From Ignavibacteriota bacterium (GTDB lineage: Bacteria; Bacteroidota; Ignavibacteria; UBA10030; UBA6906): a DNA stretch of 64,000 nucleotides. A model generated the notes under the pieces. That model searched no databases, was not told the origin of the DNA, and saw only the letters and a program-made list of their open reading frames with translations. Positions 1,602 to 55,182 of the stretch are shown one piece after another (the stretch's first letter is position 1; every line of letters begins with the position of its first letter). The stretch is taken from positions 1,216,001 through 1,280,000 of the forward strand of contig CAWDEM010000004.1 in NCBI GenBank assembly GCA_963801355.1, read 5' to 3'. The position numbers and the translations under genes are program-made.

Positions 1602-2652
1602 GTGCTGACCACGTCGAAAGCACCCCTGCCCCTGCTCCCCACAACCGTCATCGGCAGCTATCCGTTTCCCAGATGGCTTGAAACCGTCCGCGATCTCGGC
1701 GCCCAGGGAAAGCTGACGCACGCCGATGTTGTCGAAGCCCACGATGCCGCCGTGCGGTCGGCCATCATGGACCAGGAATTCGCCGGCGTGGATATCATCA
1801 CCGACGGTGAGCTGCGACGGGAAACCATGGTGAACTTCTTCTCCGCCCGGATTCACGGGTTTGACATGTCCGGCAAACTCAAACCGATCGGGAATCTGGA
1901 TCCCTCAATCCAGATGAAAGATCCCGTTGTGCGCGACAAGGTGCGACGACTGAACGGCCTTGGCATGGATGACCATTTTGCATTCCTGCAAGCACACGCA
2001 ACGCACGCGACCAAAGTGTGTGTGACCGGTCCTCAAATGCTCGCCAAGAGGGCAACCAATGAGTACTATCCGTCGGACAAGGAGCTCGTGTTCGACCTCG
2101 CCGATGTGCTGAACGTGGAGCTGAAGAACCTTGTCGGGGCGGGGTGCAGGTTCATTCAGATAGACGAACCGGTGTGGGTCGGGTATCCCGCCGATATGCC
2201 ATGGCTCGTCGAGTCGTTCAACAGGCTGGTCGACGGGGTCAATGCCAAAATCGCCCTGCACGTCTGCTACGGCAACTATCAGCTGAAAAGACTCTTCACA
2301 GGGGAATATGCACAACTCTTTCCGGCGATTCTTGACACCCGGGCTGACCAGATCAGCATGGAGTTCGCCGTATCGGACGGTGCGGGACTGGATCTGTTCA
2401 AGAAATACAAAACCGACAAGGAGGTCGTGGTCGGCGTGATTGACGTGAAATCCCCGGACATCGAATCTGCCGGCGACTGTCGCGCAGCGGATCAGGACTG
2501 CGCTGGAATTCATTCCGGAGGCCCGGATGTACATTTCGCCCGACTGCGGCATGAAGTTCATGCCGCGCGACAGGGCATTCGGAAAACTGAAGGCCATGGT
2601 TGAAGGCGCGAAAGTAGTTCGTCAGGAGTTGATAGGAATCGGAGGAGCCTAG
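1602..2652 (+). CDS. Cobalamin-independent methionine synthase C-terminal (core MetE-like, Zn) family protein; +1 frameshift near 2470
   Basis: TTVIGSYPFP, TDGELRR, IQIDEP, LHVCYGN; the frame shifted after ~2470 reads ATVAQRIRTALEFIPEARMYISPDCGMKFMPR..GKLKAMV to TAG 2650-2652. Confidence 0.85.
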
Positions 2653-2659
2653 GCCCGGC

Positions 2660-4863
2660 ATGCCCCAGCGGAGCGAACTCACGGTACGGCAGGCAGCACG
2701 CTGCGCTTCGCCGGATTGTCATCCGGCAATCGGATCCCGCTGTGTGCCGGACAGTCGCAGAAGCGTGGCGCGAGAGCCTCTCGCCGGAGGCGGAGATTGC
2801 CGTCAGTGCAGAACCTCCTGCGGCTGAGGCAGGCACACTCGTCATTCGGGTGGGTGGCCCACGACAGTCTCCTGCAGAGGGGAAACTGGTCTGGCCGGCG
2901 AATCACGCAGTGGAATTGCAGGCAACACACGCCACCGCTCTCTTCCCGCTTTTCTCCATGATCGCAGAGGACTGGATTGACAGCCCGGTCCCAGGGCTGG
3001 CGGAACCCTTGACGTACCGTCCGGCCTTCCCCTGGTTGCGCAATCTCAATGACTTTTTCGTCGGCAGTCTGCGAACGGCACGGGGATTTGACCGCGAGGC
3101 CTTCGTGCGACAACTCGCACGGGCGGGATTTACGCATGTGACGGTCAACGGTCTGGGGGGACCCCGTCCATACGAAAGCAGCCCTCCCGGCGACGTATAC
3201 CACTGGTTCTATGATTATAGTCCCGACCTCGATCAGTTTGTCGACAGTGAACTCGTGCGGGGGTACTATCCTCGCGGAGTACGTGCGTGCAAATCGGGAC
3301 GCGCTGCGTGCCAATGCAGCGCTTGCCAGAAAGTACGGAGTGATTCCCGGTCTCCACATCAATTCCCCTCGGTCGATGCCGGAGGAATTCTGGCACCGCT
3401 TTGGCTATCTGCGGGGTGCCAGAGTGGATCATCCCCGCGAGACCCTGCGCCCCCGGTATACACTTGCCATGGCGCACCCGGCGGTGCAGAAACATTACCG
3501 TGAATTGATCCGGAATATCATGACTGAGGTTCCGGACCTTGGCTTCATCCATGTCTGGACCAATGACAGCGGTGCGGGATTTGAATTCGTGAGTTCTTTG
3601 TATGCCGGGCGCAATGGAGGTCCGTACTTGCTGCGAGAATGGAAGGGCGACGAGGCGATTGCACGTGCGGCAGCGGGCAACGTTATGACGTATTACCGCC
3701 TCCTGGCGGAGGAAGGGCGGCGGGTGAATCCCGCATTCCACCTTATATGCGATCTCGGTCCGTTCTTCGCCGAGCGCAAGTACATCATTCCGGACTTGGG
3801 TAACGGCATCGATGCGGGCGATTTCGCGTTCTTTGAGGAGCAACCCGGAGGTCCGGGGCGCGAAGCCATCGAAGCCACGGGAGCACAGGTGCATCTCAAG
3901 CTGGATCTGTGCGACAACAACGTGCTCGGAGTGCCGGCGCCCGTTCTTGTGTATGAAAGGTTGCGCGATGCGTTCCGCAGCGGGGCACGCGCAACCTTGA
4001 CGAACATTGCACCTCCGTCGCTGGTCCCGTACGACATCAATGGTGAGGTGGTGCGGGCCTTCCAGGCGAACCATGACAAGCCGCCGGAGCCGCTTCTGGA
4101 GCGCTGTGCGCGCCAGTGGGCGGGTGAGATGCATATGGCCCGGCTGCTGCGCGTCTGGTCGCTGTCCGACGCAGCTGTCCGCGCGTACCCACCGACTATC
4201 CCCATGAGCACGTTCGGGTTTCCATGGTTTCGCCTCTGGGTGCGTCCCTTCGTGCCAAACATCGACGCCATCCCTGAAGGGGAACGGGCCTACTACGAAA
4301 AGTTCCTCCTGGCAACGTTCAACAATCCGGCACGTGTCGATCTCAACAATGACATGATGTGGAACTTTCTGACCGTCGAGCAAGCAGGCGGGCTGCGGCA
4401 GGAGATTGATCAGAAGGTGCTTCCCCCGCTCACCGGGGCGATCCTGCTCTGTCACGAGCTTCTGCAGGGAACGCACGCCACGGACCAGGTGCCCCCTGTG
4501 TTTCCAGATCTGCAGGACCGGCTTCGCGCCGCACGGTGCTACTACACCACGATGCGCAACACGGTTGCATGGACGGAATCGGTGCACGGCTATCTTCAAG
4601 CCACGACAGAGACGGAGAAAACGCAGTTCAGATCTCTCTGTGATGCAATGGTTGCCGGAGAACTCGCGAACACCCGGGACCTTCTCACGCTCTGGCAGCA
4701 TTCGGCAGGATCCTGGATGCCGGTATCCGCGCTCGGCGAATCCCTGCATCTGTACGGTGAGAACTTCGGTGACCTCCTGGGGCACAAGATTGCGTTGATG
4801 GAGCGCCATGTCCATGATGAGCCGTATATCGATCCCCAGTACATGTGGCGGATGAAAAACTGA
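2660..4863 (+). CDS. Uncharacterised large protein, possibly glycoside-hydrolase-like; paralog of 40868-43201; frameshift at ~3273 and possibly ~2700
   Basis: ORFs 2742-3503 and 3211-4863 join by removing one base (GYYP-AEYVRAN) and align colinearly with the intact paralog (LRGARVDHP, NDSGAGFE, GRNGG, DEPYxDP); start uncertain (ATG 2660 or GTG 2742). Confidence 0.7.
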
Positions 4864-4897
4864 CCCGGAGTCTTCCATATACTCAAGAGGAGATATC

Positions 4898-5698
4898 ATG
4901 TTGTACGACGACACCTTTCCATTGCTTGAAGAGCAGATACGCTTCTACGAGGAGAACGGATATATCCAGCTGCACAACGTTTTGACGCGTGAAGAAGTCG
5001 TCGCACTGCGGTCGGCTGTGGAGGTCGCCGCCGAGGACCGGAAACGCCTGCAGGAGAACTGGGGGCCCAGGGGAGATGAAGGATATGCCAAGGTCTTCCT
5101 GCAGATGGTGAATGTCTGGGAGCGGTATCCCGCCATTGAAGAGTACACGCTCAGTCCGCGTATCGGGGACATCGCCCGTCAGCTCACCCGGTCGCCGTAC
5201 GTCCGCCTCTGGCATGACCACGCGTTGATCAAGTACCCGAAAGACAGCAAGGCGACGGCGTGGCACCAGGACAAGGTCTACTGGCCGATGAAGGAAAACG
5301 GGGCGCTCTCGTGCTGGATGGCGCTCGACGATGTCACCGTGCAAAACGGGTGCATGTGGTTCCTCCCCGGTTCGCATGTGCTGGGTCCGCTGGATCCTGT
5401 CGATCTGGGCACGGCAGACGAACAGAGTCTGCTGCGTGTGCTTCCGGAATCCATGAAGCATGTCCGTCCGGTGGTCATGGAGATGAAAGCCGGGAGCTGC
5501 ACATTCCATCACGGACTGACGTTCCACTATGCCGGGCCGAATGTTACGGATGGACCCCGCCGCGCGATGGTAACGATCTTCATGCCCGCGGGCACGCATT
5601 ACAGGAAGCAAGAACACATCGTCGGCGACAGGGGAAACCTTGCGGATGGCGAGGAATTCCACGGACCGCTTTTCCCGTTTATCGGGCGGGGGATGTAA
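4898..5698 (+). CDS. Phytanoyl-CoA dioxygenase (PhyH) family Fe(II)/2-oxoglutarate oxygenase
   Basis: WHQD (HxD), WMALDDVTVQNGCM..LPGSH, TFHYAGPN...RRAM; SD GAGGAG. Confidence 0.9.
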   Translation: MLYDDTFPLLEEQIRFYEENGYIQLHNVLTREEVVALRSAVEVAAEDRKRLQENWGPRGDEGYAKVFLQMVNVWERYPAIEEYTLSPRIGDIARQLTRSPYVRLWHDHALIKYPKDSKATAWHQDKVYWPMKENGALSCWMALDDVTVQNGCMWFLPGSHVLGPLDPVDLGTADEQSLLRVLPESMKHVRPVVMEMKAGSCTFHHGLTFHYAGPNVTDGPRRAMVTIFMPAGTHYRKQEHIVGDRGNLADGEEFHGPLFPFIGRGM

Positions 5699-5705
5699 TA
5701 CCCTC

Positions 5706-7295
5706 ATGACGACGAGAGTCACATCATTGCATACCGGCGATCCCCGGCTGGACGAGCTGCTTCCCCGGATCAAGGGCTTTCTGGATCAGGATGTGTCGGA
5801 AATGAACGCGCTGGGTTCGCGCGTGCGGGGGTACCGGTCACCGGACGGACCGAGTCTCTGGCTCCGGGATCACACAGACATGATGCGCGGGTTCCGGTAC
5901 TGGGAGCGCGACATGACGAGCATGATCGAGCACTTCGCCGAGACACAGACCGCGCGCGGGTGGCTCTTCGACTATTTCACGCTCACTCCCGACAAACTTC
6001 CCTGTGAGCGGGAGAACTGGGCAAAGTATGTCAGGGTGCCGGTGGAAGCGGACGTCGAGTACAGGTTCATCAACGGCATCTACCTGGCCTGGCAGGCGAC
6101 CGGGGACGACGGGTGGCTGCGACGCATGCTGCCGCACGCCGAGCGGGCCCTTGCGTACATTTTCAACGATCCCTGGCGGTGGGATCCGCGGCACAAGCTT
6201 GTCAAACGTGCCTACACGATCGACACATGGGACTTTGACTACACCGCCGGGCGGCATCCATGGCTGAACTTCCAGATTACCGATGAGACATTCTGGGGGA
6301 TCATGCACGGCGACAACTCGGGCTATTACGAAGCCTGCCTGCGGCTTGCCGTGCTCCTCGACAGGGTGCGGATGAACAAGCGAGCGGCATACTGGCGGCG
6401 CTTTGCTGCCGGTCTTCGCCGCCGGACAAATGCTCTCTGTTTCAACGGGCGGTTCTACACCCATCATGTGCCCCTTGTGCCGGTCACGGTTCCCGGGGTT
6501 GACACAGGCGCGCAGCTCAGCCTGAGCAACCCGATGGACATCAACCGCGGTCTGGCGACCCACGCAATGGCCACCGCGATCATCAAGGAATATCGGAACC
6601 GCGGAAAGGCGACCGGCGCGTTTGCGGAATGGTTCAGCATCGACCCGCCGTTTCCGGACGGGATCTACGGTGACGAGAAGATCGTCGCGGGGGCCTACTG
6701 CAACGGCGGGATCATGCCGCTGGTGGGCGGCGAACTCGCCCGGGCGGCATTCGAGCACGGATGTGAATCCTACGGCGTCGAGCAGCTGTACAAATACCAT
6801 GAACTGACAAAAGCCAACGAAACCTACCTCTGGTATTTCCCGGATGGCCGTCATGCCACCCGCGAAACCAGCACCAGTCCGGAGGCCTATCCTACGGACG
6901 GGTGGGGTTCGTCCGCCATGCTGTACGCATTGATCGAAGGGCTCGCTGGTGTTGTCGACGCCGGGGCATGCTTCCGGCGCGTGAAGCTTTCTCCGCGATG
7001 GTTGGCTGCGGGGCGGGATGATGCCGAGGTGGTGGCGGCATACGGTGTCAGCGGAGCTTCATGCAGCTATCAGTATCGTCATGATGCCGCACGGTCCATG
7101 ATGACATTGGAGGTGACCGGCATCGGAGAGGTTCAGCTGCACCTGTTGTTGCCAAAGGGTGCCCGTGTTGCCGGTGTCCGGGTGAACAGGCGGGCCGTCG
7201 CGGCACGTGCTGCCACCGTTGAACAGAGTTCGTATGCCGACGCCGGTTTTGCACTGCGGGGCAATGCACGTGTTGAAGTGTCCTACAAAGGATAA
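5706..7295 (+). CDS. Putative (alpha/alpha)6-barrel glycoside hydrolase-like protein
   Basis: WLRDH, EADVE, YLAWQATGD, YCNGGIMP, GWGSSAMLYALIEGLAG followed by a beta-sandwich-like C-terminus; family not assignable. Confidence 0.6.
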   Translation: MTTRVTSLHTGDPRLDELLPRIKGFLDQDVSEMNALGSRVRGYRSPDGPSLWLRDHTDMMRGFRYWERDMTSMIEHFAETQTARGWLFDYFTLTPDKLPCERENWAKYVRVPVEADVEYRFINGIYLAWQATGDDGWLRRMLPHAERALAYIFNDPWRWDPRHKLVKRAYTIDTWDFDYTAGRHPWLNFQITDETFWGIMHGDNSGYYEACLRLAVLLDRVRMNKRAAYWRRFAAGLRRRTNALCFNGRFYTHHVPLVPVTVPGVDTGAQLSLSNPMDINRGLATHAMATAIIKEYRNRGKATGAFAEWFSIDPPFPDGIYGDEKIVAGAYCNGGIMPLVGGELARAAFEHGCESYGVEQLYKYHELTKANETYLWYFPDGRHATRETSTSPEAYPTDGWGSSAMLYALIEGLAGVVDAGACFRRVKLSPRWLAAGRDDAEVVAAYGVSGASCSYQYRHDAARSMMTLEVTGIGEVQLHLLLPKGARVAGVRVNRRAVAARAATVEQSSYADAGFALRGNARVEVSYKG

Positions 7296-7298
7296 TAC

Positions 7299-9545
7299 AT
7301 GAAACGACGCGATTTTCTCAGGACACCGGCCGTAAGTCTCCTGGTTCCCGCTGCCGGTGCACTTTCCCTTGACGAGATGCTTGACTTTGATCGGCCGCAG
7401 GGCGGAGCCTCCCAGGAAGCCCGAAAGCATCCGCAACGGCTCCACCAGGATTTCTCGACCTACCAGCCGGGCATCGAATACTTCTTCATTGGCAACGGTG
7501 AGCTGCAGGCTGTTGTGCAGTACATGCCCGACCGTTCGGGAGATCTTCCCCAGACGTTTCTCGGCATGACACTCATGGATGCCGAAAGATTCTCGCGGAA
7601 ATGGAGCACGTATCTCTTTCACCCCGAGCGGGGGTTTGAAAATTCCAGGCTTTCTGTCACGATCGAGAACAACAGCTACTGGGTACTTCCGGACACGCTT
7701 GTCGAGGTGAAGTGGAAGATGGTCGAGTCGGTCCCCGTGATTTCCGCGCTCTGGAAGGCGGGCGTCATGATGGTCGAAGAAGAGATCTATGTCCCCTCGG
7801 AAGGGGCGTACCTGATCCGCCAGGTAACGTTGCGCAACACCGGCGCGACAGCCCTGCCCGCAATTGTCCGGCTGCCGCTCGTTCCCAATTTCACGGTGTT
7901 CGATGACATCGGGACCGACCCGAAGAAAAGCATCGCATTCGGGCGCGGGTATACCGAGATCACACTTTCCTGTCTGGACGGCGACGCAAAGGCCACCGGA
8001 CGCTATGAAGTGTCGACGCAGCTCGAAGCCATCGCGCCGGGCAAGGAAGCTGTCGCCCGGTTTGTGTACGCCATCCGGCCGGGCACTCCGCTCCTCCGGG
8101 CGGCTGATATGCCGAAGTTGTGGAAGAAGACGGTCGCCTACTGGAAGTCGAAGCCGGTCCTCTCAGCGGGGAATGAGCGGCTCGACCATCTTTACGCCGT
8201 TTCCCGCAGCGGTCTGAAAGCGCATCTCGGCCGGAGCGGCAAACGCGACAGCGGATACTGGCAGTACAATATGGAATGGGTACGTGACGACGTGATGATG
8301 ATCCAGGGGTTGTCGATGGCCGGCATGCATGAGGAAGCACGGGCCGTGCTCCTCAAAAACCTCTCGCGGAACGTTGGTCCGGACGGATGCCTGGTCGAAT
8401 CAAGCCGCTGGTCCGGCACGGACCTTACCGAGCTGGATCAGAACGGGCAGCTGTTGTATGCGGCATGGCTCTATCTCTGCTGGTCCGGCGACCGTGATCT
8501 CGTCAAGAAGTACTGGCCGCAAATTGTGCGGGCCGGTGACTATCCGCTGCAGGACGTATTCCGCGGACGTCGCACACGGCTCCTGCGCAACAAGAGGGAA
8601 TTCTGGGAACGGAGCGATCGCGAAGGTGTTGAAGACGGCTTCGAGCTGGCGTATCAATTCTGGGTGATGATGGGGTTGGAACGGGGGACCGAACTCGCCC
8701 GGGCAATGGGTGAAAGCGCCACGGCAAATCGTTGGGCGGCTGCCTCCGCCGAATTGAAACAGATCATGTTCCACGACCCCACATTCCGGTTCATCGAAGA
8801 CGGACATTTGATCAAGAGACGAACGCTTGATGGGCGGTGGCAGCGGTACATGATACCCCCGGACCGCACGACCATGCCCCCGGGATCCCCGCTTGCCCTG
8901 AACGAAAAACCTGACTGTGAACCGGACAGTGCCGACATCTATCCGATCATCTATGCGTATGTCGATCCGAAGGGCGAGATTGCACGCGCCACGCTCCGGG
9001 ACATGGACCTATTGTGGAATCAACAATGGGACTTTGGCGGGTATGCGCGCTACAATACGACGAGCGAGCCCGATCCGCCGGCTCCCTGGCCGATTGCCTC
9101 GATCCTGATGGCGCGGGCTGCAGTCGAGATGGGAGATGACGAACGTGCATGGCGTGCCATCGACTGGGTCAGCACAATTCACGGAGGCAAGTCCGGCGGA
9201 TGGTTTGAGCGGTACGGCCCGAGTATCACACCGCCGGCTCCGCCGGTCTCCGTGGTTGGCTGGACGTGGGCGGAGGTGGTTGTGCTGATGGTCCAGCACA
9301 TACTCGGATTCCGTCCCGATCTCGACGGCATCGTCATCCGGCCGCGTCTCATCCGGGGCGTCGATCGTCTGCACACGGCCTTCACCGTTCGCGGCTCGAC
9401 CTACGACGTGACCGTGAGACGCGCAACCGAAGCATCGGCGACGGTGAATGGAGTGAAGGCGGAGGTCAAGGACGGCGCACTGAGGCTTGTGCACCGCAAA
9501 AAAGGAAGTCAAACGGATATTATTCTGGAGGTCCCGGGTCGATGA
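7299..9545 (+). CDS. Tat-motif GH15/glucoamylase-like six-hairpin glycosidase
   Basis: N-terminal MKRRDFL; YNMEWVRDD, ELDQNG, FWER, GGYARY, PWPIAS. Confidence 0.65.
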   Translation: MKRRDFLRTPAVSLLVPAAGALSLDEMLDFDRPQGGASQEARKHPQRLHQDFSTYQPGIEYFFIGNGELQAVVQYMPDRSGDLPQTFLGMTLMDAERFSRKWSTYLFHPERGFENSRLSVTIENNSYWVLPDTLVEVKWKMVESVPVISALWKAGVMMVEEEIYVPSEGAYLIRQVTLRNTGATALPAIVRLPLVPNFTVFDDIGTDPKKSIAFGRGYTEITLSCLDGDAKATGRYEVSTQLEAIAPGKEAVARFVYAIRPGTPLLRAADMPKLWKKTVAYWKSKPVLSAGNERLDHLYAVSRSGLKAHLGRSGKRDSGYWQYNMEWVRDDVMMIQGLSMAGMHEEARAVLLKNLSRNVGPDGCLVESSRWSGTDLTELDQNGQLLYAAWLYLCWSGDRDLVKKYWPQIVRAGDYPLQDVFRGRRTRLLRNKREFWERSDREGVEDGFELAYQFWVMMGLERGTELARAMGESATANRWAAASAELKQIMFHDPTFRFIEDGHLIKRRTLDGRWQRYMIPPDRTTMPPGSPLALNEKPDCEPDSADIYPIIYAYVDPKGEIARATLRDMDLLWNQQWDFGGYARYNTTSEPDPPAPWPIASILMARAAVEMGDDERAWRAIDWVSTIHGGKSGGWFERYGPSITPPAPPVSVVGWTWAEVVVLMVQHILGFRPDLDGIVIRPRLIRGVDRLHTAFTVRGSTYDVTVRRATEASATVNGVKAEVKDGALRLVHRKKGSQTDIILEVPGR

Positions 9546-10810
9546 AGAGGAAAGACTTTCTGACGGCGTGCATGGCGGGTCTTGTCGGCGGTGCGGTTGC
9601 CCCGCATCTGGCGCGGGCAACCCCGGTAACCCGGCCCCCCTGGCCGGCTACGAATACGAACGATGAGCGGTTCTGGGCATTTGTGCGTGACCAGTTCCCG
9701 CTTACCCGCGAGCGCGCGTACTTCAATACCGGCGGACTCGGGGCGTCTCCGTATGCGGTCATAGATGCGGTAAAGACGAAGATGGACGAGCTGGAGCGCA
9801 TGTCGGAAACGGGGCACTCCGAAGAGCTCTGGTGCGCGGTGAAAGGCAGTGCGGCGACGCTCCTGGGGTGCGATGCGGCCGAGCTGGCCTTCATGCGCAA
9901 CACGACGGAAGGCGTCAACGTTGTGGCGAACGGTCTGCCGTTTGCGGCGGGCGATGAGATCATCCTCACGACACACGAGCACGTGGGGAATGCATTGACC
10001 TGGATGCCCCTGGCGCGGCACAAGGGGTTGAGTCTCCGGCGCTTCGAACCGTCGACAACATCTGCAGAAGAGAATCTGGCCCGGATTGGCAAACTCCTGA
10101 CCCGCCGTACGCGGTTGATTTCTATTCCTCACATTGTGACCACCACGGGCCTGGTGCTGCCCGTGAAGGAGATCTGCACGCTGGCGCATACAAAAGGGAT
10201 CTGGTGCTTCCTTGACGGCGCCCAATCGGCCGGCATGATGCCGTTCAGTCTTCACGATATCGGTTGCGATGCGTACGCCACGAGCGGTCACAAATGGCTC
10301 CTGGGGCCAAAGGAGACCGGTCTGCTGTACGTGCGCAAAGATATGCAGGACACCATCGTGCCGATGTTTGTCGGCGCTTATTCAGCCGATTTTGATTTCC
10401 TGAAGGAAACCTACTCTTATGAAAAGAGCGCGCAGCGGTACGAGTACGGTACCGTCAGCGCGCCGTTGCGATACGGTTTGGGCGCAGGCATCGACTTTAT
10501 CCAGCGTATCGGGATTGAAGCCGTCTGGCAACGCGACCGTGCGCTGGCCGACCATCTGTACGAAGGGTTGCGAGCTATTCCCGGTGTCACCGTTCTGTCG
10601 CCTTCGTCGCCCGCCCTGCGCAGCGCAATGATCACATTCGTGCATGACCGGTTAGGGCACCTCGAGATGCAGAAGCACCTGGACACGTTGAATGTGCGTA
10701 CACGGAGTGTCACCGAGGGTGGACTCGCCGCATTGCGTGTCTCGACGCATCTGTACAATACGTTTGAAGAAGTTGACAAAGCGATTGCAGGCGTTCGCTC
10801 CGCCCCGTGA
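9542..10810 (+). CDS. Class V PLP enzyme (cysteine desulfurase/isopenicillin-N epimerase-like) with Tat-like signal
   Basis: MKRKDFL..ARA signal; YFNTGG, NTTEG, THEH, DGAQ, SGHKWLLGP, RVSTHLYN; ATGA overlap with upstream gene. Confidence 0.88.
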   Translation: MKRKDFLTACMAGLVGGAVAPHLARATPVTRPPWPATNTNDERFWAFVRDQFPLTRERAYFNTGGLGASPYAVIDAVKTKMDELERMSETGHSEELWCAVKGSAATLLGCDAAELAFMRNTTEGVNVVANGLPFAAGDEIILTTHEHVGNALTWMPLARHKGLSLRRFEPSTTSAEENLARIGKLLTRRTRLISIPHIVTTTGLVLPVKEICTLAHTKGIWCFLDGAQSAGMMPFSLHDIGCDAYATSGHKWLLGPKETGLLYVRKDMQDTIVPMFVGAYSADFDFLKETYSYEKSAQRYEYGTVSAPLRYGLGAGIDFIQRIGIEAVWQRDRALADHLYEGLRAIPGVTVLSPSSPALRSAMITFVHDRLGHLEMQKHLDTLNVRTRSVTEGGLAALRVSTHLYNTFEEVDKAIAGVRSAP

Positions 10811-10866
10811 CGTTTGAGTTCACGACCCCCAACACCACATTCACAACTTCGTCTGTTGGAGCGCAC

Positions 10867-14066: not shown

Positions 14067-14088
14067 GGCGAGCCCGGCCGGCGGGGTA

Positions 14089-15736: not shown

Positions 15737-15743
15737 GTCGATC

Positions 15744-47091: not shown

Positions 47092-47878
47092 CACGACACC
47101 GGTAGCCATCGTCACAGGCGCAAGCCGTGGACTGGGGCGGGGTATCGCCGTGCAATTGGCGGAGCTGGGATTCTCCGTCGTTGTCAATTTCTCCGGAAAC
47201 GCCGCCGCAGCGAGTGAGACAGTCGAACTCTGCCGTTCCCGGCAGAGTCAGATTGACCAGAAGTTCGTCCCGTTCCAGGCCGATATGGCCGAACAGGCTG
47301 ACCGGGTGCGGCTGGTCGAACAAACGCTTGGCGCACTGGGACGAATCGATGCGCTGGTCAACAATGCAGGGGTCGGTCCGCTGGTGCGTGCAGATGTGAC
47401 CGAAACTTCCCCAGAATCCTTCGATCGCGTCATGCGGGTGAACCTGGAAGGCCCGTTCTTTCTCACACAGGCGGTCGTCAACTACTGGCTCTCGCAGCGC
47501 CCCGATCCGTTGCTTCCTCACGGTTTCTCCATCGTGAATATCTCCTCCATATCCGCGAATACCGCGTCACTCAACAGGGGTGAGTACTGTATCTCCAAGG
47601 CGGGCCTTGCCATGGTGACACAGCTCTGGGCCGTGCGGCTCGCCTCCTCGCGCATTCATGTCTTCGAACTGCGGCCGGGTATCATGGCGACGGACATGAC
47701 GAGTGTCGTGAAGGAGAAGTACGAGAGGATGATGGGCGAAGGGCTCGTGCCCCAGAACCGCTGGGGCCGCCCCGATGACGTCGGAAAAGCTGTCGGCGCA
47801 CTAGTGACCGGGGCCTTCCCATATTCCACCGGGAGTGTCATCTATCTGGACGGTGGGATGCATCTCAGAAGATTCTAA
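47084..47878 (+). CDS. Short-chain dehydrogenase/reductase
   Basis: TGASRGLG, NNAG, YCISK, RPG..TDM; GTG start with SD AAGGA. Confidence 0.92.
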   Translation: MADTTPVAIVTGASRGLGRGIAVQLAELGFSVVVNFSGNAAAASETVELCRSRQSQIDQKFVPFQADMAEQADRVRLVEQTLGALGRIDALVNNAGVGPLVRADVTETSPESFDRVMRVNLEGPFFLTQAVVNYWLSQRPDPLLPHGFSIVNISSISANTASLNRGEYCISKAGLAMVTQLWAVRLASSRIHVFELRPGIMATDMTSVVKEKYERMMGEGLVPQNRWGRPDDVGKAVGALVTGAFPYSTGSVIYLDGGMHLRRF

Positions 47879-47904: not shown

Positions 47905-49278
47905 ATGCTCACCATCGATACATCTCTCACCCCGGAGAAGCTCCTTCCCGGAATCGACAGGGTCTTCTCTGTGTCGGCAAAGAAGATCGACGCACTCCAG
48001 AAACGCTGGGATCCCGCGCGTGGTACGCCGGTATTCACCGTGCGGGGTGAATACACGTCGCGGGGGTGGACTGAGTGGACGCAGGGCTTCCAGTTCGGGT
48101 CTGCCATACTGCAGTTTGACGCGACAGGTGATGAACATTTCCTCGCCATCGGGCGCGATGCGACGGTCCGGTACATGGCCACTCATGTCAGTCATATTGG
48201 AGTGCACGACCACGGTTTCAACAATATCAGCACCTACGGCAATCTGCTGCGGCTCATGAACGAGGGCAGAATGCCCGAAAATCCGTGGGAGCGGGCATTC
48301 TATGCTCTGGCCCTGAAGGTGAGCGGCGCAGTTCAGGCTGCGCGGTGGACCGATCTGGGAAGCGGCAGGGGGTACATTTATTCCTTTAACGGGCCGCACT
48401 CTCTCTTTGCCGATACGGTGCGCTCGCTCCGTGTGCTCGCCGTGGCTCACCGGTTCGGCCATGTGCTGATGGGAGAAAAGGACCGGAAGATATCGCTTCT
48501 GGACCGGCTCATCCGCCACGCCGACGCGACGGCCGAGTTCAACGTGTATTTCGGCGTAGGACGCGATGCGTATGACGTCCGGGGCAGGGTCGCCCATGAG
48601 GCAATATTCAACCTGAACGACGGCTCCTACCGTTGTCCCAGCTCACAACAGGGATACTCTCCCTTCAGCACGTGGACACGGGGCCATGCGTGGATACTCT
48701 GCGGCTTCGCAGAACAGCTTGAATTTCTGGACACTCTTGCCGGAACTGACTTCGTGTTCGGGGAGTCGAAGGAAGAGATCATGAAGAGATACCTCAACAC
48801 CGCGATCGCCGTTGCAGAGTTCTATCTGTCGCAAACACCTGTTGATGGCATTCCCTACTGGGACACCGGGGCGCCCGGGCTGGCGCGGATGGGGGACTAC
48901 CTGAACCGCCCCGCCGACCCGTTCAATGATCACGAGCCGGTGGACAGTTCTGCTGCGGCGATTGCAGCGCAGGGACTCATTCGACTGGGGAATTTTCTCT
49001 CAAAAAATGCGGAAGACCTCAAGGGAACCCGCTACAGGAAGGCGGGGCTCACCGTGGCAAAGACCCTTTTCGGGGAGCCCTATCTGTCAACCGATGCCGC
49101 ACATGAAGGGTTGATTCTGCACTCGGTGTACCACCGTCCCAACGGGTGGGATTATGTGCCGGAGGGGCACAAGGTCCCCTGTGGAGAAGCAACAATGTGG
49201 GGAGACTACCACTCGCGCGAGCTCGCGCTTCTCGTACAACGCATGGCGAAAGGCCAGCCGTACTATACATTCTTCTAG
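47905..49278 (+). CDS. GH88-like unsaturated glucuronyl hydrolase family protein
   Basis: WTQGF, HDHGF, TWTRGHAW, PYWD, DSSAAAIAA, WGDY. Confidence 0.8.
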   Translation: MLTIDTSLTPEKLLPGIDRVFSVSAKKIDALQKRWDPARGTPVFTVRGEYTSRGWTEWTQGFQFGSAILQFDATGDEHFLAIGRDATVRYMATHVSHIGVHDHGFNNISTYGNLLRLMNEGRMPENPWERAFYALALKVSGAVQAARWTDLGSGRGYIYSFNGPHSLFADTVRSLRVLAVAHRFGHVLMGEKDRKISLLDRLIRHADATAEFNVYFGVGRDAYDVRGRVAHEAIFNLNDGSYRCPSSQQGYSPFSTWTRGHAWILCGFAEQLEFLDTLAGTDFVFGESKEEIMKRYLNTAIAVAEFYLSQTPVDGIPYWDTGAPGLARMGDYLNRPADPFNDHEPVDSSAAAIAAQGLIRLGNFLSKNAEDLKGTRYRKAGLTVAKTLFGEPYLSTDAAHEGLILHSVYHRPNGWDYVPEGHKVPCGEATMWGDYHSRELALLVQRMAKGQPYYTFF

Positions 49279-50268
49279 CTGGTCTCCGCAGCAAAGAATG
49301 TCCAGAGGTTCTGCATCGGCGCCTGAGCAGGAACATCACACCCCGACGAGATCACGAAATTCTTGTACAGTGCCGTTGCCTCGAGCAACTTCTCTGTTTT
49401 CATGCGTGACTTCCGCGACTGTTCCGTTGACGAAAACCTCCGACGGATCGAGGTTTCCGCAGAGTACCACGTCGTTCGGAACCTGCTCCAGCGCTGCAAC
49501 GATGTCCATCGGCTTTCCGAAGTGAAAAATGCGCGCACCGGTCTCAAGGCTCGGTGCAAGGTGGGTGATCCTGGCCCCGCAATTGTGCAGGATCACCTGG
49601 AAGTCGTTGTCGTTTACCGCTGTAACGATCTGACGGACGTACGGTGTGCAGAACTGCCGGAATGACGCCGGTGACATCAATCCCGCCGTAGGTTCCGCCA
49701 TGAGCACGCCGTGAGCACCCGCCTCTTTGAACGCGCGGGCATAGGCGATGAGAAATGCGGTGGTCTTTTCCAGGAGCGTGTGCATGAGTTCCGGCTCGCC
49801 CATGGTTTCCGCCAGCGCCTCACTCACGCCATAGAGTCGACCTGCCAGCGAAAAGGGGCCGATCATCCCGCCGAGAACCAGCGCGCCGGCGACCCGTGCA
49901 CGCAGCCGTCGTACCGTCGCGAGATAGACTCCGGTGCGTTTCGTCCCGATCTTCGGGATCGCCAATGACGCGATGCCGTTGCCCTCCGTGAGGTAACGGC
50001 CCACGACGGAGGGAATTTCCCAGTCGTCCATCGTGATTGTCGCCCCGAAGGCTTCTGCCTCAACGCTCAAATCCATTGCCGACAGAACGAAGGGCGTCTG
50101 GAACTGTGCCTGCAGTGCCTCCGATGCCGCACATTGCTTCACCGGGTCGGTCACCATTTCGCGAACATTGGTATGCGTGAGTCGCGCACCGGGGAACGTT
50201 ATGATCGGCATGAAAAGACGGCTGGGAGAAGAGAGAATCGTTGCGACCAGTTGCGGTGTTGCGGTCAT
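49275..50268 (-). CDS. URO-D/MtaA-CmuA family corrinoid methyltransferase; +1 frameshift at ~49404
   Basis: DLSVEAEAFG, GPFSLA, AEPTA, LHNCG, GNLDP; shifted frame continues KTEKLL..FVISSGCDVP to TAG at 49275. Confidence 0.85.
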
Positions 50269-50279
50269 ACAGAGTCCTT

Positions 50280-51806
50280 TCACGCTGATGTGCTCTCAAT
50301 GTTCGCGGGGAACAGCATCTCTTCGACATACGCATCCTGAAATCCCTGCAGTCCGCTCAACGAGACGTGAGCGATGCGGTGGGCGAGGGCGTCAAATACG
50401 GCCGGATCGACAAACAGGGCCATCTTGGCGCCAAGGAGTGCGGTGTTGCCCGCCGGATGAATCTGGTCCAGAGCAAATGGCAGCAACCCGATGCGCCGGG
50501 CACTCGCGGTGTCGACATAGTTGCCGAAAGCGCCTGCAAGATCCACCCTCTCGATTTCCGGGCCCCGGAGTGTGAGCTCGTGCAGTAACAGCCGGATCCC
50601 TGCCGCAATGGCACCCTTAGCCAGCTGAAGTTCGCGGATGTCCGTCTGGGAAATTTTGACCGGGTCACACAGCATGAGTGATGGTTCTCCGCCCGCCAGA
50701 CGGCCACCTGGCAGGACCCGCTGCAGATCAAGTGCGCAGGCGACCGCATCCACCAATCCACTCCCGCATATCCCGCGGGGGGCGACGTTCCCGAGCACGT
50801 GACAGAGGAGCTGTCCGTTGTTCGTCCGCACGGCCGACACAGCGCCTGTCGATGCACGCATACCCATGTAAATGCGGGCACCTTCGAATGCCGGACCAGC
50901 GGCAGTCGAGGCACAGAGCATCTGCCTGCCGTTGCCGATCACTATTTCGCCGTTGGTGCCGAGATCAATCAGCACATGCGGCCGATCGGCGTTCTGCAGC
51001 CCTGTGGCAAAAACTCCCGCCAGAATATCGCTGCCGACGAATCCCCCGATGTCCGGAAGAAACCGGATCTGAGGTGTTCCCTGCAAAGCCCACCCGAGCT
51101 GCGGGGCATCACATATCGTCCCTCCGAGGTGCTCCGGTTCAAACGGATAGTGCGAGAGGGGTTCTACGGAACGATCGGAAAACAGATGATGCATTACGGT
51201 GTTGCCGACAAGGACGATATCCCGGACAGGATCGGCCGCCCGCCCGGCCCCCTGAAGCAACTCCACGATCATCTTCCCGATCTGCCGGCGCACGGCCTCC
51301 ACGAGTCTGGCCTGCCCGCCCTCATGGACGGCGTATCCCACGCGGGACATGATGTCAGCACCGAATCGGGCCTGAGGGTTGAGGGCTGTCCTGACGGCCA
51401 GGACCTCAGCGCGTTCCAGATCCAGGAGTTGAGCGACGAGAGTGGTCGTCCCCACGTCAATTGCGATGCCCAGACCGGATTTCGGGACGAAGGAGAAGCT
51501 GGTCGTATCGGCGAGGATCTGGGCTTCCCATTGCGCCAGTTCCAGGACCAGGTCACTGTCAGCGTTGCACTGGCAGGAGAGACGCCAGCCGGCCGCGAGT
51601 TCCTCCGGTGTGAGCATCCGCTCCTGCTCGTCATTGACCGGGAGATCTCCTTCGATAACACGAACACGGCATCCTTTACATTTTCCCTTCCCTCCGCAGG
51701 GAAATTCCACGCCGAAGGGAAATAGCACGTCTTGAAGGGGCGTGCCGCGAGGGGCGTCGAAAGCCGCGCCCATCGGGCGGAGACGAATGTGGACCGTTTC
51801 GTTCAT
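50280..51806 (-). CDS. ASKHA-domain ATP-dependent corrinoid reductive activator (RACo/RamA-like, DUF4445) with N-terminal 2Fe-2S
   Basis: CGGKGKCKGC..RLSCQ, IDVGTTT, GADIMSR, DLGTNGEIV, AGPAFEG, GICGSG, AGAFG. Confidence 0.92.
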   Translation of the reverse strand: MNETVHIRLRPMGAAFDAPRGTPLQDVLFPFGVEFPCGGKGKCKGCRVRVIEGDLPVNDEQERMLTPEELAAGWRLSCQCNADSDLVLELAQWEAQILADTTSFSFVPKSGLGIAIDVGTTTLVAQLLDLERAEVLAVRTALNPQARFGADIMSRVGYAVHEGGQARLVEAVRRQIGKMIVELLQGAGRAADPVRDIVLVGNTVMHHLFSDRSVEPLSHYPFEPEHLGGTICDAPQLGWALQGTPQIRFLPDIGGFVGSDILAGVFATGLQNADRPHVLIDLGTNGEIVIGNGRQMLCASTAAGPAFEGARIYMGMRASTGAVSAVRTNNGQLLCHVLGNVAPRGICGSGLVDAVACALDLQRVLPGGRLAGGEPSLMLCDPVKISQTDIRELQLAKGAIAAGIRLLLHELTLRGPEIERVDLAGAFGNYVDTASARRIGLLPFALDQIHPAGNTALLGAKMALFVDPAVFDALAHRIAHVSLSGLQGFQDAYVEEMLFPANIESTSA

Positions 51807-52552
51807 TCCGAGGCGGGTTGGGCGTCGATGATGCGTTCGTCGTATGTGGCGACGACGCGATGTCCGGGCGGCACGACGAGAAACTCCTCAGTATTCCATA
51901 CGGCATGCACAAGGTGCTCGAGGAGTGCGAGGTCGCCCTTCACGGCGTCGAACTTCCATCCATGTTCGCGAGCGCGGGCTTCCGCTTCTTTGTGAAAGCG
52001 GTCATCGGGTTCGACGCCCATGGCAATGTAGGAGATCTGCCGGTAGTTCCTCGTCGTGTCGCACAGCTGTTCGAAAAGGTACTGTGCGTTTTCTGCACCG
52101 TACTTCTCCGTGAGCTGTGCGAGCGTCATGTCCATTCCGTTCTTGGCTGCAATGGAGAGTTGTCTGAGTTCGCCGGAGGCTTCGCCGCGTTCAATCCATC
52201 CCGACGTGAGGAAGTAGGTGCCGGGGTTGTCGGTGAAGTACTGCTGGTAGCGGGCGCGGCTGCCCAGGAAGAGGGTCATGCAATCATGACCGCGGGGAAT
52301 AACCAGAGGGAGTGTCCGTGCGCGGAGTCCGCTGACACCGTTGTTGCAGAGGGCGTAGCCCATGAGCACGGCATCATACCCGGGTGTGTCGGCGGCGTCC
52401 ACTGCGGCTTGCAGACGGGCGAGCATCCCATCGGCGCCGATATCGTGGAGTCCTTTTGGCAGGACAGCCAGATCCACCTGATGCGGTGAGCGGGCAATCA
52501 GCGCGCAGAGCTCACGATAGAGAACCTCGCACGCAACAAGTTTCAGTTTCAC
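51803..52552 (-). CDS. DUF1638 domain protein
   Basis: LVACEV, GLH, GYALCNNG, HDCMTLFLGS, GTYFLTSGW. Confidence 0.85.
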   Translation of the reverse strand: MKLKLVACEVLYRELCALIARSPHQVDLAVLPKGLHDIGADGMLARLQAAVDAADTPGYDAVLMGYALCNNGVSGLRARTLPLVIPRGHDCMTLFLGSRARYQQYFTDNPGTYFLTSGWIERGEASGELRQLSIAAKNGMDMTLAQLTEKYGAENAQYLFEQLCDTTRNYRQISYIAMGVEPDDRFHKEAEARAREHGWKFDAVKGDLALLEHLVHAVWNTEEFLVVPPGHRVVATYDERIIDAQPASE

Positions 52553-52579: not shown

Positions 52580-53446
52580 TCAGGGCCGCAGCGCTTTCTG
52601 CAGTGCATGAATGAATTCGGGGGAGGTCCCGCAGCACCCGCCGACAAATGCCACGCCGGCCTTACGCAAGGATTCCGCCTGGCGCGCAAACTCGGCAGGA
52701 GTGGTACGGTACACGATGTGCCCGTCAACAAGTTCCGGGAGACCCGCGTTGGGCTTGATCCAGATAGGCAGCGGTGTCGCCATGCGGAGGCGTTGCGCAA
52801 TGGGTATGTAGCCCTCCATGCCCAGCCCGCAATTCGCACCGATCACGTCCGCTCCCGCCTCGGTAAGCGCCTCGGCCACCTCCTCCGGTGTCGATCCCAT
52901 CATCGTGCGGTCTTTCTGTTTACCCGAGTCGAAGACCATCGATGCGACGACCGGCAGACCGACGGTCTTTGCCGCGCGGACAGCAATGCATGCCTCCTCG
53001 AGGTCGGACATTGTTTCGATGACAAGGGCATCCGCCGCACCGAGTGCCGATGTCTGCTCTGCAAATGCGTTGAAGACCTCTTCCTCGCTCACCTCTCCCA
53101 TCATCAGCATCTTCCCTGTCGGCCCGATGGACGCGAACACCCTGGCGCGTGCACCTGCAGCTCCGCGCGAGATTTCCACACCCGCGCGATTGATCTCGAG
53201 AACGCGGTCCCCAAGCCCGTGAGCCGTCAGGGTAATCCTGTTGCTTCTGAAGGTATTGGTGAGGATCACCTTGCTCCCTGCATCCACGTAGCTCTGGGCC
53301 ACCCGGCGCACAAGGTCCGGGTGAGTGAGATTCCAACCATCGGGACACTCGCCGGCGGGCAGACCCAATGCCTGTAGCTGTGTACCCCATGCGCCGTCGG
53401 TAATGACCGGATCCGGTCCGAGCAGTTGTGCGAGCAGGGAGGACAT
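52580..53446 (-). CDS. Homocysteine S-methyltransferase family protein (stand-alone MetH N-terminal-like domain)
   Basis: DGAWGT, ILTNTF, SIGPTG, IETM, GANCG, PNAGLP, GGCCGT; SD AGGAG before ATG 53446. Confidence 0.92.
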   Translation of the reverse strand: MSSLLAQLLGPDPVITDGAWGTQLQALGLPAGECPDGWNLTHPDLVRRVAQSYVDAGSKVILTNTFRSNRITLTAHGLGDRVLEINRAGVEISRGAAGARARVFASIGPTGKMLMMGEVSEEEVFNAFAEQTSALGAADALVIETMSDLEEACIAVRAAKTVGLPVVASMVFDSGKQKDRTMMGSTPEEVAEALTEAGADVIGANCGLGMEGYIPIAQRLRMATPLPIWIKPNAGLPELVDGHIVYRTTPAEFARQAESLRKAGVAFVGGCCGTSPEFIHALQKALRP

Positions 53447-53456
53447 TGCGGGACTC

Positions 53457-54092
53457 CTACGCGGCGGAGAGCCTGCGCGCGAGCGCGACTGCCGCGTTGG
53501 CATTGTTGCTGTAGCCGTCTGCGCCGATTTCGTCGGCATATTTCTGCGTCACCGGTGCCCCACCGATCATGATCTTGACCTTGTTCCGCACTCCGGCGGC
53601 GTTGATGGCATCCACCGTCGTCTTCATGGAATTCATCGTGGTGGTGAGGAGGGCGGACATCGCCACGAGGCCTGCGCGTCGTTCGTTCAGCGCTGCTATG
53701 AATTTTTCCGGGGCAACGTCCACACCCAGATCAATGACTTCAAAACCCGCGCCCTCGAGCATGGCTGCCACCAGATTCTTGCCGATGTCGTGCAAATCAC
53801 CCTTGACCGTCCCGATGACCACGCGGCCCGCCGGTTCGGCGCCTCTGGCCGCCAGGAGGGGACGGATCAGCTCGAGGCAAGCCTTCATCGCCCGGGCCGA
53901 TATCAGCAATTCCGGCACGAAGTACTCATTGGCCTCATAGCGGCGTCCGACTTCGTCCATGGCAGGGATCATTTGCTCCTGCACGAGCGCCTGCGGATCG
54001 ATGCCCGCGGCCAGCGCCTGTTGTGTGATCTCACGTGCGGACTTGAAATTCCCGGTGAGAATGGCATCGTACATCTTCTTCAGATCTTCCAT
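53457..54092 (-). CDS. Corrinoid (B12-binding) methyl-carrier protein, MtbC/MttC-like
   Basis: Cap domain (FVPELL.SARAM) plus GTVKGDLHDIGKNLV, DLGVDV, SALLTTT, GGAPV. Confidence 0.95.
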   Translation of the reverse strand: MEDLKKMYDAILTGNFKSAREITQQALAAGIDPQALVQEQMIPAMDEVGRRYEANEYFVPELLISARAMKACLELIRPLLAARGAEPAGRVVIGTVKGDLHDIGKNLVAAMLEGAGFEVIDLGVDVAPEKFIAALNERRAGLVAMSALLTTTMNSMKTTVDAINAAGVRNKVKIMIGGAPVTQKYADEIGADGYSNNANAAVALARRLSAA

Positions 54093-54132
54093 CGAAAGAG
54101 ATCTCCTTCCCGTTGAGTTTCCTCGGAGTGGA

Positions 54133-55182
54133 TCACACTCCGTGTTCGTAAATCGTTTTGTATAGTGTCGTAATATTCTCTGTCGGCGTCACCGGCTGGA
54201 TATTGTGACAGGGGGCGCAGATCCAGCGGCTGCCACTGAAGATGCGGATGTTGTCCAGGACCTCGTTGCGCACGTCCGTCACCGACCCGAACGGGAGAGT
54301 GAACTGATTGTCGACTGCGCCGTGGAAAATCACGCGTCGCCCGAAATCCCTGACCAGGCCTTCCCGTTCCATTCCCGGGCAGCGCCACTGAATGGGATTC
54401 AAAACCTCAATGCCCGTGACGTCGAGCAGATCGGGAATGATCTCACGCGCTGCCCCGTCTGTATGATAGAAGACGTGGATGCCGAAGCTGCGTGCCAGAT
54501 CCGCCATCTTCTTCTGACGCGGAAGGATGTACTTGCGGATTTCAGGTACGCCGAACAACAGAGACGTCTGTCCGCCGAGATCCTCCGCAACGTAGGTGAT
54601 ATCAATCCGGCCTTTGCCGAGTTCGAACAACCGGCTGTTCAGCTCGAGATGGTATTGAAAAATGTGTTCAAGGGCGGCATCGACGATTTCGGGTTCGACC
54701 TTAAGATCCATCATAGCCAATTCCATGCCGCGCAGTGCGCAGTAGAGCAGGAACGGCTCATAGTTGCCGGCGCAGAGTATGCGGTGAGGCGGCGACCCGG
54801 CGACCTCGCGTGCGAAGCGGTCGAAGTCAACGTCTCCGGCACACGGCCAACCATACGCGTGGATTTCCTCAACCGAGCTGACATTCTCCAGCGGATGATT
54901 GGCAAACTCGTCATAGCTCCCGGCTCCGTAGCTGACAGCCTTGCGCCGTATCCCCCAGATGTCCGCACGAGCATCTATGGGGAAGTGGTCCACGGTGTGC
55001 ACGGGTTTGAGCTCCACGACGCCGTCGATGTGCAACGTAGTGTAGAGCTCCTCCTTGTTCGCGCACCGCAACTCGCGCAGGAGTCGCTCGGTCACTTCGT
55101 CGGTCGCCCAATAATCAGTGGGAATACGATCCGGTTTCTCGCCGTTGAAAAGGGCCAACCAGCGTTCACGTGGAGTCAGCAT
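54133..55182 (-). CDS. URO-D superfamily protein, candidate substrate:corrinoid methyltransferase
   Basis: TPRER..KPDRIP, EDLGGQ, YHTDG, LNPIQ, FHGAVDNQ, APCHNIQ..TP.EN. Confidence 0.85.
   Translation of the reverse strand: MLTPRERWLALFNGEKPDRIPTDYWATDEVTERLLRELRCANKEELYTTLHIDGVVELKPVHTVDHFPIDARADIWGIRRKAVSYGAGSYDEFANHPLENVSSVEEIHAYGWPCAGDVDFDRFAREVAGSPPHRILCAGNYEPFLLYCALRGMELAMMDLKVEPEIVDAALEHIFQYHLELNSRLFELGKGRIDITYVAEDLGGQTSLLFGVPEIRKYILPRQKKMADLARSFGIHVFYHTDGAAREIIPDLLDVTGIEVLNPIQWRCPGMEREGLVRDFGRRVIFHGAVDNQFTLPFGSVTDVRNEVLDNIRIFSGSRWICAPCHNIQPVTPTENITTLYKTIYEHGV

Follow-up and report, generated by a model that had tools for sequence, protein, structure and literature searches.

A corrinoid methyl-transfer module convergent with a 35-gene catabolic run in an Ignavibacteriota genome and its plausible link to O-methyl sugars

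Is the breakdown of sugars coupled to vitamin B12-dependent methyl transfer in a 64,000-nucleotide stretch of an Ignavibacteriota bacterium (contig CAWDEM010000004.1, positions 1,216,001 to 1,280,000; hereafter the window), where a long + strand run rich in genes for sugar kinases, transporters and glycosidase-like proteins meets a corrinoid module? An initial annotation had treated 54 kb of the window as a single pathway for a heavily substituted glycan, from which methyl groups would be stripped via B12. According to open reading frame (ORF) calling and family scans, the locus consists of two separate convergent units lying side by side in a genome of the Fibrobacterota-Chlorobiota-Bacteroidota (FCB) group, the one on the − strand being a corrinoid methyl-transfer system. 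The reading favoured here, held with modest confidence, is that this system carries out anaerobic B12-dependent O-demethylation of methyl sugars and delivers the methyl group to homocysteine, giving methionine, or to a thiol.

Thirty-five + strand genes form one co-oriented run (1602-49278), and the six genes of the corrinoid module occupy 55182-49275 on the − strand, tail-to-tail with the run (Table 1). At 28 of the 34 junctions within the run a candidate start overlaps the previous stop or lies within 10 nt of it (overlapping at 20), each start having been chosen by proximity to the previous stop and not proven; the widest gap is 137 nt. The stops of the GH88-like gene of the run and the MtaA-like gene of the module overlap by 4 bp (49275-49278). 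Because the module is convergent with the run and their terminal stops overlap, the two were assigned to separate transcription units, and a single 54-kb operon was ruled out by strand. The 4-bp overlap leaves no room for a terminator, and the junction is similarly tight in two related loci (L003 and L006). The same-strand, tightly packed run of the initial annotation was recovered, as was its inventory of two SSS transporters, sugar kinases (two PfkB, ROK and glycerate kinases), C-N hydrolases (nitrilase family, amidohydrolase, M20 and cyclase), racemases (LarA-like and OSBS/N-acyl-amino-acid racemase-like), a MetE core at the start of the run and a UroD protein at 36470. The abutting module, announced as a full corrinoid methyltransferase module, is present as six genes, but on the opposite strand and with a PF02574 acceptor, not a folate or coenzyme M (CoM) second methyltransferase (MT2).

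The candidate first methyltransferase (MT1) begins the module operon, with the corrinoid carrier 40 nt downstream and the acceptor and the activator in the same operon. The carrier scored 203 bits against TIGR02370 (cut-off 215.3), and the homocysteine S-methyltransferase was 38-42% identical to Bmt-type proteins. Since no pterin-binding (folate MT2) Pfam match was obtained among the 57 window ORFs scanned, homocysteine is the visible methyl acceptor. The MT1 model predicted by AlphaFold2 (AF2; pLDDT 94.6) gave MtaA (4ay7, E 4e-14, 18% identity) as its top Foldseek match, with true UroD ranking close behind, and no PDB sequence match was found for MT1 at E ≤ 0.01. The ligand motif of MT1 was H240-x-D242 ... 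C325-H326, with His240, Asp242 and Cys325 as ligands, and its residues were invariant in 47 of 47 aligned relatives; relatives at E ≤ 1e-30 numbered 4093. The MtaA-like gene at the other end of the operon was the only module UroD with a sequence match to MtaA (E 3e-14), and its His-Cys-Cys is intact in L003 and L006. In the accessible part of PMC10418091, His-Cys-Cys is associated with S-methyltransferases of the UroD/MtaA superfamily, and a carboxylate in place of Cys with O-methyltransferases; by this rule MT1 was classed as O-type and the MtaA-like gene as S-type.

A scan of species-representative genomes with the MT1 alignment gave at least 583 relatives among at least 598 matches, and neighbourhoods were counted for the best 80 of these at least 583 relatives (53-91% identity, flanks of about 10 kb), the closest of which come from Bacteroidota/Ignavibacteriota metagenome-assembled genomes (MAGs). 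These closest relatives and a PorV-family gene at 362 assign the host to the FCB group. In six of the 80 loci (L016, L030, L032, L033, L036 and L041) the MT1 orthologue, 61-65% identical to the window MT1, lies directly after rhaA (L-rhamnose isomerase) in the order rhaB-rhaA-MT1-GH78; an FGGY kinase is found upstream where the contig allows, GH78 follows MT1 in five of the six, and RACo is downstream in five (one partial, at a contig end). Among the 132 positions invariant in the window MT1 and 16 module-type MT1s, 119 are also invariant in the six rhamnose-operon proteins, whose clade is nested within an FCB-dominated clade (95) that includes the window MT1 in a quick tree of 79 rows (L057 and L062 were left out as short). 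O-Methyl-rhamnose is the best substrate lead for the MT1 clade, and 3-O-methylrhamnose is a reasonable candidate because the arabinogalactan proteins of bryophytes and ferns are rich in it, according to the accessible part of bioRxiv 10.1101/2025.03.14.643249. A further His-Cys-Cys UroD family was noted upstream of rhaB in L016, L032, L033 and L041, and divergent from MT1 in L006 (8780-9910).

Other relatives also lie among sugar genes. The module has GxGYxYP, GH89 and CBM9 neighbours in L014 and L026, and in L043 MT1 and carrier are followed by a Gfo protein, another UroD, GH38 and DUF2961. Among 55 stand-alone MT1 orthologues, mostly from Planctomycetota, a carbohydrate or sulfatase gene was the next called neighbour in 23 and lay within 4.5 kb in 27, counts for which there is no baseline; neighbour labels were assigned to 99 singletons and to 106 cluster representatives and neighbours, out of 723 genes in 431 clusters called with a crude gene caller. 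A Subdoligranulum variabile record (OY725838.1, Bacillota) held the only plasmid-collection matches for the 37548 and 40859 proteins of the run, side by side (37548 protein 34%; 40859 protein, hidden Markov model E 6.5e-86), together with a ROK kinase (44%), GH38, GH78, GH2, a PF07470 hydrolase, M20 and seven Pfam-matched UroD genes. These sugar genes are convergent with MtaA-like (41%), DUF2284 and RACo (39%) genes, preceded by the apparent end of a corrinoid protein at the edge of the record, and the locus was taken as an independent case in which sugar genes, UroDs and a corrinoid module are coupled. A Chloroflexota plasmid carries a 26% MT1 homologue among ROK, sugar isomerase and sugar ATP-binding cassette (ABC) transporter genes. 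In Vescimonas, a homocysteine methyltransferase was seen next to a cobalamin protein, with no sugar genes.

A carrier or RACo gene was found near MT1 in 24 of the 80 loci, and 14 module loci were informative for the convergent side (those with carrier plus RACo whose downstream sequence ran to at least 5.7 kb). A convergent GH88-like gene was present in nine of these, from eight MAGs, with the short-chain dehydrogenase/reductase (SDR) next in eight, SSS transporter 2 in seven, the C-N hydrolase in four, the glycerate kinase in three and the 40859 protein in one, counts limited by the 10-kb flank. Three loci (L015, L022 and L027) keep the GH88 side only and not the upstream neighbours of the module. 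One MAG carries the complete locus twice, as L003 and L006 on separate contigs (77% and 74% MT1 identity), which may represent a duplication or a mixed bin. PhyH-family dioxygenases lie just 5′ of MT1 in L004, L005, L006, L008 and L009 (30-35% identical to the window's PhyH) and are a possible oxygen-dependent counterpart.

In the scheme proposed, in which substrate, flux and co-regulation are presumed from gene content, folds, metal ligands and neighbourhoods, glycosidases would free an O-methylated monosaccharide, which an SSS carrier would import; the zinc UroD-fold MT1 would activate the methyl ether and the Co(I) of the carrier would accept the methyl group; the free sugar would enter ordinary kinase/isomerase catabolism; the methyl group would pass to homocysteine to form methionine, the His-Cys-Cys MtaA-like enzyme offering a possible second outlet to a thiol or sulfide; and RACo would re-reduce oxidised cobalt. 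Such methyl sugars are probably supplied or consumed by the right-hand part of the run, which spans about 35.5-49.3 kb and includes a UroD gene of its own, and the substrate in the window genome may be a methyl sugar other than O-methyl-rhamnose. The earlier proposal of B12-dependent methyl removal from sugars gained contextual support from the rhamnose operons, the Subdoligranulum locus and the O-type zinc ligands. More tentatively, the MT1 clade as a whole is put forward as a possible cobalamin-dependent O-methyl-sugar demethylase of FCB-group bacteria, Planctomycetota and gut bacteria, an anaerobic counterpart of the cytochrome P450 route that transfers methyl to homocysteine or a thiol, not to folate.

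The right-hand genes were characterised as follows. The GH88-like protein scored 22.4 bits against its Pfam cut-off of 26.6, and in its PDB match, an unsaturated glucuronyl hydrolase, a His-Asp motif was aligned that we take to be catalytic. The 40859-43201 protein gave no Pfam or NCBIfam match and 435 representatives at E ≤ 0.001; its AF2 model (pLDDT 95.3) showed a three-domain fold resembling GH20/GH138/GH67/GH89 (Foldseek, GH138 6hzg, E 5e-14; VIA Z 18.6 with rmsd 6.2 over 492 residues aligned to GH20 2epo), and its atlas neighbours carry GH67N/GH20b domains. Together with the 2660-4863 protein it constitutes a candidate new glycoside hydrolase family, a shared fold not being proof of function. 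Near-invariant residues D279, S280, Y291, N295 and G296 (numbering from 40952) were noted in the family. The 37548-39869 protein gave a non-significant match to PL17 (E 0.6), and its PDB sequence search returned nothing significant apart from designed repeat proteins. The UroD protein at 36470 has a His-x-Cys motif without the terminal Cys and 2595 relatives at E ≤ 1e-60. The glycosidase- and lyase-like proteins of the initial annotation were retained in part: GH38 alone passes its Pfam cut-off, GH88-like stands by its PDB match and 40859-43201 by fold, and the rest are weak leads.

Several observations weigh against the demethylation reading. The six rhamnose loci form a single clade (SH-aLRT, Shimodaira-Hasegawa-like approximate likelihood ratio test, 96) and therefore count as one event, and no corrinoid protein was seen in any of them within the available flanks. 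Neither carrier nor activator lies nearby in 56 of the 80 loci, 32 of the 55 stand-alone copies have no labelled carbohydrate neighbour, and the Subdoligranulum UroDs are just 19-28% identical to the window MT1. The GH88-like block is absent from five of the 14 informative loci, and Chondrinema litorale has a GH88-like/SDR/SSS block (57% and 46% identity), accompanied by Gfo and TIM-barrel genes, with no corrinoid gene among the 35 annotated features in the 41 kb around it. The observation named beforehand as refuting the initial annotation, a module that occurs in relatives independently of these sugar genes, was made in part. As it occurs without corrinoid genes in C. litorale and its GH88-like gene belongs to a very large subfamily (at least 8000 candidates at E ≤ 1e-100, 8000 of 8000 scored), the GH88-like block was regarded as a separable cassette. 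Synteny was also observed on the other side of the module (deacetylase and/or histidine kinase-LytR genes in L001 and L003-L009; TonB receptor, 76%), and because these far-side genes are syntenic in the closest relatives too, the adjacency of module and block may be inherited gene order; part of the synteny signal is plain descent. Evidence of co-conservation covers about 40.9-55.2 kb and no more; homology extends the support leftward to about 35.5 kb. Methionine synthesis alone would be a small sink for catabolic flux, and the MtaA-like and MetE-core genes are frameshifted in the window.

A rather unlikely alternative for the + run, compatible with the favoured reading of the module, is a scavenging superoperon for small glyco-conjugates or compatible solutes such as mannosylglycerate-type heterosides and glycosylated or N-acyl amino acids. 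An MngB-like GH38 gene directly follows PfkB, the run also holds a glycerate kinase, a 2-hydroxyacid racemase and an N-acyl racemase and deacylase, and it has SSS carriers without a TonB receptor: no TonB or SusD match was obtained among the 35 run genes, and the susC-susD pair used as the criterion of a polysaccharide utilisation locus was absent. The GH38 protein, however, scored far below the MngB cut-off (535 bits against 1138), and several likely signal peptides suggest periplasmic processing of oligosaccharides. Either small conjugates or a polymer would suit the middle of the run, where an MngB-like GH38 occurs among kinases, racemases and amidases.

It is unlikely that the module works by itself as a methionine synthase that scavenges methyl groups, a split MetH with MT1 in place of the folate domain, a donor other than a sugar and a position owed to inherited gene order. 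Its separate strand, the Bmt/MetH-type homocysteine domain of its acceptor and the conserved order of both flanks in close relatives agree with such an enzyme, as do the non-sugar surroundings of the module in L011 and L017 and the methanol methyltransferase MtaB that shares a carrier operon with an MT1 orthologue in L035 (8574-9956) and L069 (3901-5280). MT1 orthologues embedded between rhaA and GH78, the sugar genes beside the module in L014 and L026, and the independent Firmicute locus argue for a sugar donor instead.

The notion that all 54 kb encode one co-regulated pathway for one heavily decorated glycan (exopolysaccharide or O-antigen), in which amidases and racemases remove N-acyl, hydroxyacid and amino-acid decorations, was abandoned as improbable. 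The close packing of the 35 genes, the spread of methyl-transfer genes over the two ends and the interior (MetE core and UroD at 36470) and the putative glycosidase paralogues at 2.7 kb and 40.9 kb would suit it; the units are convergent, the run contains no SusC/D pair, co-conservation is confined to the right-hand part given above, and no homologue of the distinctive left-part genes (MetE core, LarA, OSBS/racemase, cyclase, amidohydrolase and the unnamed 5.7-26.8 kb proteins) was found in 86 loci, which reach about 10 kb from MT1. The left part of the run is read as a catabolic superoperon of wider scope, for which the analysis yielded no evidence of a B12 link.

That the UroD-fold proteins of sugar operons are other zinc enzymes of sugar catabolism, mis-associated with corrinoid genes, would account for the absence of MT1 matches to solved structures by sequence, the closeness of true UroD in Foldseek and the many orthologues without a nearby carrier, but is very improbable given that MT1 belongs to a six-gene operon and precedes the corrinoid protein gene by 40 nt, that RACo follows MT1 in rhamnose operons, and that the zinc triad of MT1 is of the kind found in the methyltransferase branch.

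Table 1. Coordinates, strand and basis of assignment of genes and gene groups in the window
Feature	Position	Strand	Basis or remark
PorV-family gene	362		family scan
MetE-core protein, folate-domain-less, frameshifted ~2470	1602..2652	+	PF01717
Paralogue of the 40859-43201 putative glycosidase, frameshifted ~3270	2660..4863	+	40% identity
PhyH dioxygenase, two unnamed proteins, class V pyridoxal phosphate (PLP) enzyme, SSS transporter 1	4898..12774	+	family scans
PhyH dioxygenase	4898-5698	+	
SSS transporter 1	10807-12774	+	
LarA-like racemase, IclR regulator, TIM-barrel isomerase, class III aminotransferase, amidohydrolase	12783..18746	+	
Five proteins with likely signal peptides: one unnamed, two BNR beta-propellers, two unnamed paralogues	18747..26820	+	
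PfkB kinase and GH38 alpha-mannosidase (MngB-like)	26817..30484	+	
FAA hydrolase, OSBS/N-acyl-amino-acid racemase-like enolase, dihydroorotate (DHO)-dehydrogenase-like gene, Fer4 ORF, cyclase, M20 deacylase	30481..35538	+	
ROK sugar kinase	35535..36473	+	PF00480
Second UroD-family MT1 candidate, within sugar run	36470..37579	+	PF01208
Unnamed protein, likely signal peptide, possibly lyase-like	37548..39869	+	no family match
PfkB 1-PFK-like hexose kinase	39906..40841	+	TIGR03168 above cut-off
Unnamed ~750-aa protein, putative new glycosidase family	40859..43201	+	fold only
Glycerate kinase, start uncertain	43162..44385	+	PF02595, TIGR00045 above cut-off
SSS transporter 2	44375..46174	+	PF00474
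Nitrilase-family C-N hydrolase	46171..47091	+	PF00795
SDR, PRK12745 family	47084..47878	+	NF009386, 311 bits (cut-off 250)
GH88-like (unsaturated glucuronyl hydrolase-like)	47905..49278	+	PDB 1vd5, E 2e-11
MtaA-like UroD protein, frameshifted near 49407	49275..50283	−	His-Cys-Cys (S-type) ligands
RACo/ASKHA corrinoid reductive activator, 2Fe-2S domain	50280..51806	−	PF14574, PF17651, PF00111
DUF1638 protein	51803..52552	−	PF07796
Homocysteine S-methyltransferase (stand-alone MetH/Bmt homocysteine domain)	52580..53446	−	PF02574, E 8e-68
Corrinoid (B12-binding) carrier	53457..54092	−	PF02310 and PF02607 above cut-off
MT1 candidate, UroD-fold zinc methyltransferase	54133..55182	−	PF01208
Polysaccharide deacetylase-like, LytR, hybrid beta-propeller histidine kinase, LytR	within 55309-64000	+	syntenic in close relatives
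TonB-receptor-like ORF	from 61858, runs off window end	+	outside the run

In the left and middle parts of the run, PDB sequence searches returned nothing for 5706-7295 and 18747-21104 and weak C-terminal GH94 matches for 7299-9545, and one of the unnamed proteins in 4898-12774 had weak GH15/GH65-like matches. The LarA-like racemase scored 436 bits against a cut-off of 460, and the OSBS/N-acyl-amino-acid racemase-like enolase was above the TIGR01928 cut-off. The aminotransferase was considered as a guanitoxin-pathway enzyme and rejected, its NCBIfam match being far under the cut-off (296 against 525). The two unnamed paralogues in 18747-26820 are 42% identical and have weak lyase leads; an atlas search with the 24979 protein gave lyase leads only, all below 0.9. 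The plasmid collection held nothing for the 5706 and 18747 proteins, and its matches for the 24979 protein, the amidohydrolase and GH38 were uninformative. The MetE core keeps its homocysteine- and zinc-binding residues in an alignment to 3rpd (residue list from the accessible part of PMC7857596), the terminal Cys motif lying in the other frame, and its best NCBIfam match was PRK04326 (255 bits, cut-off 406); it could be a second methyl acceptor, and nothing ties it to the carrier of the module.

Four genes are frameshifted, namely the MetE core (~2470), the 2660-4863 gene (~3270), the DHO-dehydrogenase-like gene (~32730) and the MtaA-like gene (~49407), and the shifts in the 2660-4863 and MtaA-like genes were confirmed by comparison with intact relatives. 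Because split genes recur in the long-contig relatives L007, L008, L015 and L027, assembly error is their likely, if unproven, cause. A fifth frameshift may separate the Fer4 ORF (33473-33793) from the DHO-dehydrogenase-like gene, of which it would encode the C-terminal domain. A 32-codon ORF (15744-15842, +) occupies the widest gap of the run and contains what we take to be a twin-arginine signal peptide, possibly the remnant of a deleted gene for an exported protein. Three long − strand ORFs within the run had no Pfam match. In the window, no riboswitch or other RNA was found with Rfam at gathering score and no tRNA by tRNA search, and promoter and terminator scans were not above shuffles; 1300-1700 and 55100-55450, searched for RNA, gave chance matches only. 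Base composition of the window is flat and thus does not point to a recent island.

Microbes in the gut and the ocean break down methylated sugars with difficulty, and the link between B12 and sugars suggested here is plausible and widespread. If it is true, an anaerobic B12 route would explain the turnover, in peat, sediment and gut, of the O-methyl sugars that mosses, ferns and algae contain; thousands of genes labelled 'uroporphyrinogen decarboxylase' beside glycosidases would be sugar demethylases; and a large misannotated family would be reassigned, with a possible link from glycan decay to the production of methionine or methyl-thiol. A search of the open-access literature, with most subscription papers outside its scope, returned no description of corrinoid demethylation of sugars; the oxygen-dependent P450 route (PMC6292453) was the sole route of sugar demethylation that it brought up, and PMC12296737 contained nothing pertinent.

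Among known systems, the four-component corrinoid O-demethylases of acetogens share with the module a UroD-superfamily MT1 with O-type zinc ligands, a corrinoid carrier and a RACE/RACo activator. The module differs in having a homocysteine methyltransferase and an MtaA-like enzyme, in its FCB host, and in neighbours that indicate aliphatic sugar methyl ethers and not aryl ethers; it was placed outside this class because no folate MT2 was found in the window. OdmABCD and the Moorella vanillate system are named as members of the class in the accessible part of PMC10418091. Type 1 mlp clusters, as described in the same part of that source, resemble the module in their two UroD-family genes, corrinoid protein, co-oriented Ram/RACE gene and one His-Cys-Cys gene, whereas the MT1 of the module is His-Asp-Cys without a sequence match to MtaA, and the module has a homocysteine methyltransferase, a carbohydrate context and no selenium or sulfur genes. 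Type 1 clusters are defined by at least two MtaA-like proteins more than 25% identical to a characterised CoM methyltransferase, a pair that the module lacks, and by His-Cys-Cys ligands, which the MtaA-like gene has and MT1 does not; no folate methylase was seen near the module in a window that extends 8.8 kb past MT1, the distance used for mlp clusters being 20 kb. Core MetE synthases (MesA-D, in the accessible part of PMC7857596) resemble the 1602-2652 protein in their zinc/homocysteine residues and lack of a folate domain, the latter gene being frameshifted. Split MetH/Bmt synthases share with the module a stand-alone homocysteine domain and a B12 protein with cap and binding domains, whereas its methyl donor arm is a UroD-type MT1 in place of a pterin-binding protein.

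Rhamnogalacturonan II carries 2-O-methyl-xylose. In Bacteroides thetaiotaomicron, BT_0340, 0342 and 0343 are corrinoid/methyltransferase genes with methylamine-type annotation and no sugar function given in the accessible part of PMC8941943, and BT_0338 and BT0339 are called GH141 and alpha-xylosidase in the accessible parts of PMC8264420 and PMC10434189, respectively; as in the window, glycosidases are numbered beside corrinoid genes in BT0338-BT0343, an adjacency taken from locus tags only. Marine Bacteroidota demethylate 6-O-methyl-D-galactose by P450, according to the accessible part of PMC6292453, and thereby, like the proposed system, remove an O-methyl group from a monosaccharide freed in polysaccharide breakdown. 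The P450 route described there requires O2 and yields formaldehyde, whereas the proposed route would be an anaerobic methyl transfer.

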